Below are positions 6,940 to 7,129 of a stretch of 12,059 nucleotides of DNA, one piece after another; positions within the stretch are counted from its first letter, which is position 1, and every line of letters begins with the position of its first letter. The notes beneath the pieces are model-generated. The model ran no database searches. It worked only from the letters and a program-made list of their open reading frames with translations, and had not been told where the DNA came from. The DNA is from a virus (taxonomy: Duplodnaviria > Heunggongvirae > Uroviricota > Caudoviricetes), in IMG/VR virus record IMGVR_UViG_2713896791_000029; one strand, written 5' to 3'. Both the position numbers and the translations under genes were made by a program.

Positions 6940-7129
6940 CTCACTTTTTCGCCTCACTTTTTCAAGCGTCTCACTTCGTCGCAGTTGGGATTTTCGGTTT
7001 TTCTATGTGTGTGTTTCATAAGTATTTTTTTACCCCTCACTTTTGAGGATGTATACAGGTCGAAAAGTGAGGGAGAGCGGGCTAATTTTGGCCCTCTTTC
7101 TATCCCCCTCGCTTTTGCTCCTCACTTTT
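6940..7129. repeat. Iteron array: putative replication origin
   Basis: CTCACTTTT at 6940, 6953, 7036 and 7121; variants CTCACTTCG at 6970 and CTCGCTTTT at 7108; inverted copy AAAAGTGAG at 7063, which forms an 11-bp inverted repeat with the 7036 copy. An AT-rich stretch lies between copies. Sits directly downstream of the replication gene. Confidence 0.5.

Follow-up and report, generated by a model that had tools for sequence, protein, structure and literature searches.

A cluster of short repeats lies beside the gene for a replication protein in a 12,059-nucleotide stretch of DNA (hereafter the window), and the question raised by this locus is whether the cluster is the replication origin of the element that carries it and, if so, how it is recognised by the protein encoded next to it. 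A sequence-only reading had proposed an iteron array that serves as an origin bound by its own initiator. That proposal is supported, on the strength of sequence comparisons, by a published catalogue of Gram-negative phage-inducible chromosomal islands (PICIs), by a layout of sites that is conserved among relatives, by co-variation between one residue of the initiator and one base of the repeats, and by a joint exchange of initiator and iterons relative to the sister island EcCICFT073, and every computational test that was able to contradict it came out in its favour. It is considered very probable that the gap between the replication gene (rep) and the gene that follows it is the replication origin of a phoQ/roxA PICI and is read by the winged helix of the island's own Rep protein.

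The island and its genes

The window is 100% identical to positions 1326056-1338424 of E. coli O103:H2 12009, in which an 11-kb PICI occupies the interval between phoQ and roxA. Fillol-Salom 2018 (PMC6092414) lists it among the PICIs in its supplementary tables, at 1325875-1336965 (11.1 kb). The host element carries the integrase, AlpA-type regulator, rep gene, one-directional operon and attachment site by which PICIs are recognised and falls in their size range of about 10-15 kb. The gene order is integrase, HTH regulator, small genes, DUF4222, rep, 83-aa gene, SSB, PerC, major capsid, decoration and terS. Every gene of the island is on the minus strand, and the repeat is therefore given as AAAAGTGAGG, its form on the coding strand. 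Identity with EcCIEDL933, a capsid-forming PICI, was considered and rejected, since that island is 15.4 kb long and contains portal, protease, HNH and TerL genes, all of which are absent here.

Two runs of N in the window, at 7356-7419 and 8429-8478, are compressed masks that replace 232 and 192 real bases, respectively. Because these masks break the reading frames, rep is read from the window as 410 aa, 56 codons short of its true 466 aa, and an unmasked copy of the island (locus L002) was used for the true gene order and Rep length.

Several further features of the island were recorded. A PerC-family regulator gene is located directly downstream of the SSB gene (5986-6258, minus strand); PICI homologues of PerC have been reported to activate or silence the LEE virulence island according to the allele (PMC11773190). 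The least stable and most AT-rich DNA of the window, at about 10560-10620, lies between the integrase and HTH/AlpA-type regulator genes and is presumably a regulatory and promoter region. A lambda-type cosN sequence, GGGCGGCGACCT, is present at 2409-2420 on the plus strand and a variant, GGGCGGAGACCT, at 3276-3287 on the minus strand; both are contained within a 76-nt inverted repeat (2378-2453 and 3243-3318, 79% complementary) that flanks terS, and the pair resembles the two cos sites reported for EcCICFT073.

Anatomy of the repeat array

Seven copies of the repeat were found within 190 bp, five of them exact 9-mers and two of them variants, in agreement with the iteron array that had been proposed. 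The exact 9-mer, CTCACTTTT, occurs at 6940, 6953, 7036 and 7121 on the plus strand and at 7063 on the minus strand, and the variants are CTCACTTCG at 6970 and CTCGCTTTT at 7108. The array was correctly described as lying immediately downstream of the replication gene, which is on the minus strand: iteron 1 shares 2 nt with the rep stop codon and the following gene begins at 6927, so that the repeats fill the whole 200-bp gap (6928-7127). An 11-bp inverted pair reported at 7034-7044 and 7063-7073 was also verified, the arms being 11 nt long, 100% complementary and separated by 18 nt. The coordinates of all features are listed in Table 1.

Table 1. Features of the rep gene and the probable origin, in window coordinates
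Feature	Position	Strand	Remarks
rep, 'helicase RepA family' initiator-helicase	7128..8360	-	true length 466 aa
Rep C-terminal winged-helix coding region	7131..7331	-	about residues 400-466, AlphaFold2
Asn442 codon AAC	7203..7205	-	residue X of motif K-X-F-R-R-W-L, read from sequence
Iteron 1, AAAAGTGAGG	7120..7129	-	overlaps rep stop TAA (7128-7130)
Iteron 2, variant AAAAGCGAGG	7107..7116	-	13 bp from iteron 1
Iteron 3, AAAAGTGAGG, opposite orientation	7063..7072	+	rep-proximal arm of inverted pair
Palindrome TGTATACA	7050..7057		midway between inverted iterons
Iteron 4, AAAAGTGAGG	7035..7044	-	distal arm of inverted pair
AT-rich spacer	6985..7033		64-76% AT; presumed melting region
Iteron 5, variant CGAAGTGAGA	6969..6978	-	
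Iteron 6, AAAAGTGAGG	6952..6961	-	
Iteron 7, AAAAGTGAGA	6939..6948	-	13 bp from iteron 6, 12 bp before next start codon
Next operon gene	6676..6927	-	83-aa hypothetical protein, phrog_1231
SSB gene	6269-6679		after the 83-aa gene; PerC then follows

The repeats are confined to the gap. No exact copy is present in the rest of the 12-kb window, and the three matches with one mismatch found elsewhere in it are as many as chance would give (about 3). When the 203-bp region was shuffled 5000 times with its dinucleotide counts preserved, some 9-mer reached five copies in 16 of the shuffles; in every other 203-bp stretch of the window, no 9-mer occurs more than two times.

The AT-rich stretch that had been pointed out is real but moderate. 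Its 40-mer duplex energy is -45.6 kcal/mol compared with a window mean of -55.3 (sd 4.1), which makes it about 2.3 sd less stable than average; this moderate instability, which is not the lowest stability in the window, was counted against the origin reading. A scan of the origin region revealed no DnaA box (to one mismatch), IHF site or GATC, and this absence was likewise counted against the origin reading. Gram-negative PICI origins are located directly 3' of rep and consist of two iteron sets that flank an AT-rich region (Fillol-Salom 2018, PMC6092414). The same arrangement is found here, with four sites at 7035-7129 and three at 6939-6978 on either side of the AT-rich spacer, and the location immediately 3' of the initiator gene is shared by the window and about 200 relatives.

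The inverted pair and repeats were also considered as an element that acts as RNA (a terminator, an attenuator or a small RNA) or as a packaging site. The pair can indeed form an 11-bp stem (DNA fold -9.6 kcal/mol, z -4.35) and a weak match to SprD was returned by Rfam, but this match, the only one in the scan, is sub-threshold (19.8 bits against a gathering score of 100), the RNA fold of the whole gap is unremarkable (z -1.82) and makes no use of the palindromic pairing, and the gene strand has no T-run after the stem. In relatives the direct and inverted copies change base together, a coupling not needed by a hairpin, and the lambda-type cos sites described above lie elsewhere. These results largely refute a role in RNA or packaging, which is regarded as extremely improbable.

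Conservation across Enterobacterales

The homologues of Rep that were compared came from a sample of one genome per species and from viral contigs, metagenomes and individual proteins; the approximately 250 loci retrieved yielded 196 distinct downstream sequences. Across these 196 Enterobacterales origins the sites keep their position, number, orientation and spacing while the spacers drift, and this layout was seen in Escherichia, Salmonella, Xenorhabdus, Kosakonia, Pectobacterium, Serratia, Morganella, Yersinia and others. The consensus opens at the stop codon with one direct site or two and continues with an inverted pair, an AT-enriched spacer and two to four direct sites. The commonest orientation string among the 196 origins, '>><>>>>', is that of the window, adjacent direct sites are spaced 12-13 bp apart, and the offset of the inverted pair is 29 or 31 bp in 167 of 209 adjacent site pairs of opposite orientation. 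AT content is raised at the aligned position of the window's AT-rich spacer.

Column information calculated over the same alignment peaks on the iterons and on a central TGTATA(C/T)A, and is near zero in the spacers. TGTATA, mostly in the form TGTATA(C/T)A, was found between the sites in 121 of the 209 adjacent pairs of opposite orientation. The corresponding palindrome of the window, TGTATACA, is conserved even where the iterons differ, Enterobacter and Klebsiella relatives included, and may be a melting point, an assembly point or a site for a host factor.

L110 (IMG/VR UViG_2541047774_000008) has an intact rep but a gutted origin, the DNA between its first and its last iteron pair having been lost in a natural deletion that apparently arose by recombination of direct iterons with each other. 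Another relative, CP018459.1 (L254; K. pneumoniae pKp_Goe_795-4, 16,971 bp, circular), was deposited as a plasmid and is actually a PICI-like element with genes for an integrase, capsid, head-tail adaptor and terminase and, oddly, also a tape-measure gene. It carries a Rep with Ser at the variable position described below and a TAAGTGCGGCA origin (GTGCGGC) with the same layout as the window, and its circular record is a weak hint of autonomous maintenance of the rep-ori module.

Natural origin deletions such as that in L110, together with the decay of part of the island itself (in RefSeq, the interval from the HTH regulator to the Icd-like gene is annotated with a pseudogene and fragments), could mean that the array is an origin by descent that is inactive in E. 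coli O103:H2 12009, a fossil in a decaying island. Against this, Rep is intact at its full length, five of the seven sites are exact, and Asn in Rep is matched with A-type iterons, as it is in working-looking relatives. It also speaks against a fossil that the identical 741-bp segment recurs across hundreds of genomes (at 99% identity or more, 368 records). An inactive origin is judged to be very improbable.

The initiator protein

The core of Rep belongs to Pfam AAA_25 (E 4.6e-43), the protein is named helicase RepA family protein in RefSeq, and it has a full-length match to phrog_2850. The nearest solved relative of the core is RSF1010 RepA (PDB 1g8y), a weak match (E 0.005) that covers residues 150-321. 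Structure was examined using an AlphaFold2 model of P0001, a protein 94% identical to Rep, whose mean pLDDT over the full length is poor (65), a weakness counted against the origin reading. A Foldseek search with this full-length model indicated a RecA-fold core. Its only matches were generic RecA-type ATPases (E at least 1.4e-3), a consequence of the low quality of the model everywhere except in the core and the C-terminal domain. The C-terminal domain (residues 400-466) was modelled as a winged helix with pLDDT 86-93, consisting of helices at 405-419, 426-435 and 443-452 and a beta-hairpin at 456-465. The recognition helix in the model is that at residues 443-452, and it is directly preceded by the residue designated X below.

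These matches and the model divide Rep into three parts: an N-terminal domain in common with the primase-type initiator of EcCICFT073, a helicase core of the RecA fold (RepA/AAA_25) and, at the C-terminus, a winged helix. The homology at the N-terminus comprises residues 1 to about 122 of Rep (window positions ~8000-8360) and the N-terminus of the EcCICFT073 initiator (L084, 8242-8616), with 84% DNA identity. As this N-terminus is common to two otherwise unrelated initiators, a recombination joint is placed inside the rep gene.

Co-variation of Rep and the iterons

The iteron core was defined as AAGTG-N-GG, in which N varies by lineage, and X was defined as the variable residue in the Rep motif K-X-F-R-R-W-L. 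Among 202 unique combinations of Rep C-terminus and origin, Asn at X is paired with A at N in 48 of 52 loci, His with G in 63 of 65, Lys with G in 30 of 37, Ser with C in all 27 and Gly with C in all 12. The exceptions that were examined, scored as 'mixed' iteron calls, were due either to the origin deletion in L110 or to matches that are not iterons, and their interpretation as true mismatched residue-base pairs was rejected. The pairing fits the usual hydrogen-bond preferences, which are those of asparagine for adenine and of histidine or lysine for guanine.

Class-level co-variation among the first 80 loci, which were distant from one another, was dropped as confounded by phylogeny, and this set was replaced with a closer one from E. 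coli, Salmonella and metagenomes that was analysed by independent contrasts. A tree of the Rep C-terminal domain was built with X masked, and parsimony gave about 24 changes of X. All 12 edge-disjoint contrasts fit the residue-base pairing, and eight of these are separate switches between Asn and His. Loci L190 and L199 differ in their 70-aa C-termini only by His versus Asn (CAC/AAC), and all of their iterons read GTGGGG and GTGAGG, respectively.

The codon for X is located 78 nt upstream of the stop codon, so that one short recombination tract can carry both X and the iterons, and the co-variation could in part reflect linkage of this kind. Selection is also argued for, because no mismatched combination was found among about 117 Asn/His loci. 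Two Asn-type origins (L108 and L186) contain, at about +184 after the rep stop codon, a single GTGGGG site of the His type among GTGAGG sites; the odd site may date from an earlier switch of specificity or from recombination.

Specificity of the iterons for their cognate initiator is thus apparent computationally, both in the tracking of the base by residue X and in the differences of initiator and iterons alike in EcCICFT073. We lean, with a little more confidence than doubt, towards a direct reading of the fifth base of AAGTG-N-GG by Asn442 at the N-terminus of the recognition helix. On that reading the Asn-A, His-G, Lys-G, Ser-C and Gly-C variants would be a set of replicons orthogonal to one another, in which an AAC/CAC change and a concerted change of all of the approximately seven iterons repeatedly create new specificity types, and related islands could coexist in one cell. 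A description of the residue-base pairing was not found in the literature searched, and a full-text search of papers for the iteron sequences returned unrelated primer matches only; the pairing may be new.

Recognition by Rep, which is what the co-variation demonstrates, does not specify the function of that recognition. The repeats could be operator or copy-control sites to which Rep binds in order to regulate read-through or expression of the 83-aa gene, SSB, PerC and capsid, or to handcuff copies of the island, with initiation taking place elsewhere. The array does lie inside a single-direction operon, its last site ends just ahead of the next start codon (Table 1), and plasmid iterons often serve both initiation and control. 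Nevertheless, no sigma-70-like promoter or terminator was detected on either strand between 6700 and 7350, except for one antisense hairpin on the plus strand that occurs at chance frequency, and the island contains no second cluster of sites to act as the true origin. Two clusters that flank an AT-rich stretch also match the layout of the proven SaPI and EcCICFT073 origins, and a regulatory role could in any case coexist with origin function. Purely regulatory sites are regarded as improbable.

Comparison with EcCICFT073

The closest experimentally studied case is EcCICFT073, for which rep- and ori-dependent plasmid maintenance has been proved (Fillol-Salom 2018, PMC6092414). That island and the window have in common the roxA/phoQ attachment site, DUF4222 upstream and the 83-aa gene, SSB, PerC, capsid and decoration genes downstream, and in both the origin occupies the gap just 3' of the initiator gene and contains many short repeats in both orientations. 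They differ in the initiator, which is a 584-aa primase-family protein in EcCICFT073 and a RepA/AAA_25 helicase in the window (homologous only over the N-terminal segment described above), in the iterons, which are (T/C)(G/A)TCTACC in EcCICFT073 and AAAAGTGAGG here, and in the length of the gap (288 bp versus 200 bp). That the proven origin has an initiator core unrelated to Rep was counted against the origin reading. The two islands cease to be homologous at about residue 122 of Rep, and homology is regained some 70 nt into the 83-aa gene. The break spans Rep from its core onwards and the repeats; the initiator core, its C-terminal part and the repeats have therefore been exchanged together, as judged from the two sequences, and such a joint exchange would be expected of a cognate initiator-origin pair.

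Comparison with other replication systems

In SaPIs, the C-terminal winged helix of Rep binds 6-12 iterons just downstream of rep (PMC9371898). The window resembles these systems in having a self-contained initiator-helicase with a C-terminal winged helix, repeats directly downstream, an AT-rich centre and no separate loader (PMC9371898). The two differ in that the SaPI Rep core is AAA+/MCM-like whereas that of the window's Rep is of the RecA-fold RepA/DnaB-like type, and in that SaPI iterons are oppositely oriented across the AT region whereas the two flanks in the window are oriented the same way and only the rep-proximal site at 7063-7072 is inverted; this difference in layout was counted against the origin reading. 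No sequence similarity exists between the SaPI Rep/ori and the window.

RepA of RSF1010 and the IncQ plasmids belongs, like the window's Rep, to Pfam AAA_25 and is the closest solved core by sequence. IncQ RepA is a helicase only, and a separate protein, RepC, binds the iterons of the origin; in contrast, the window's Rep is predicted to have a winged helix of its own and an extra N-terminal domain. The alpha protein of phage P4, a satellite of enterobacterial phages, is likewise a single multifunctional initiator, with a C-terminal domain that binds short repeated octamers. It combines a primase with a superfamily-3-type helicase and depends on two repeat regions that lie apart, ori and crr, whereas the window has one compact array beside rep and a RecA-fold core. 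Classical iteron plasmid origins (pPS10, R6K, F, P1) are characterised by iterons of 17-22 bp, a Rep with two winged helices, DnaA boxes and loading of the host DnaB; the window departs from them in its 8-10 bp repeats, in lacking a DnaA box within one mismatch and in an initiator that is itself a helicase.

Proposed mechanism and implications

From the anatomy, the conservation, the co-variation and the joint exchange we infer Rep binding, melting, self-loading and initiation at the gap. After induction by a helper phage, the island operon would be expressed and the winged helices of Rep would bind the seven AAAAGTGAGG sites, with Asn442 at the start of the recognition helix reading the A of GTG-A-GG. 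Rep protomers held on the two site clusters and on the inverted pair around TGTATACA would assemble into helicase rings, which would open the adjacent AT-rich DNA at 6985-7033, and Rep would load itself as the replicative helicase, as SaPI Reps do. No experiments on the O103:H2 island or on its Rep type were found in the literature searched, which was counted against the origin reading.

An origin at this position is an expected and ordinary feature of a PICI, already known as such, and its novelty is low because it belongs to a described class in a catalogued island; it confirms where a widespread island starts replication, with a modest practical gain. The rep-ori segment of this island was matched in 1516 of 5426 complete E. 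coli genomes, O157:H7, O103 and O145 strains among them. The comparison with EcCICFT073 indicates that the replication module, consisting of the C-terminal part of the initiator and the origin, is swapped as a unit. The residue-base pairing provides a testable handle on origin specificity, on the compatibility of co-resident satellites and possibly on small orthogonal replicons.
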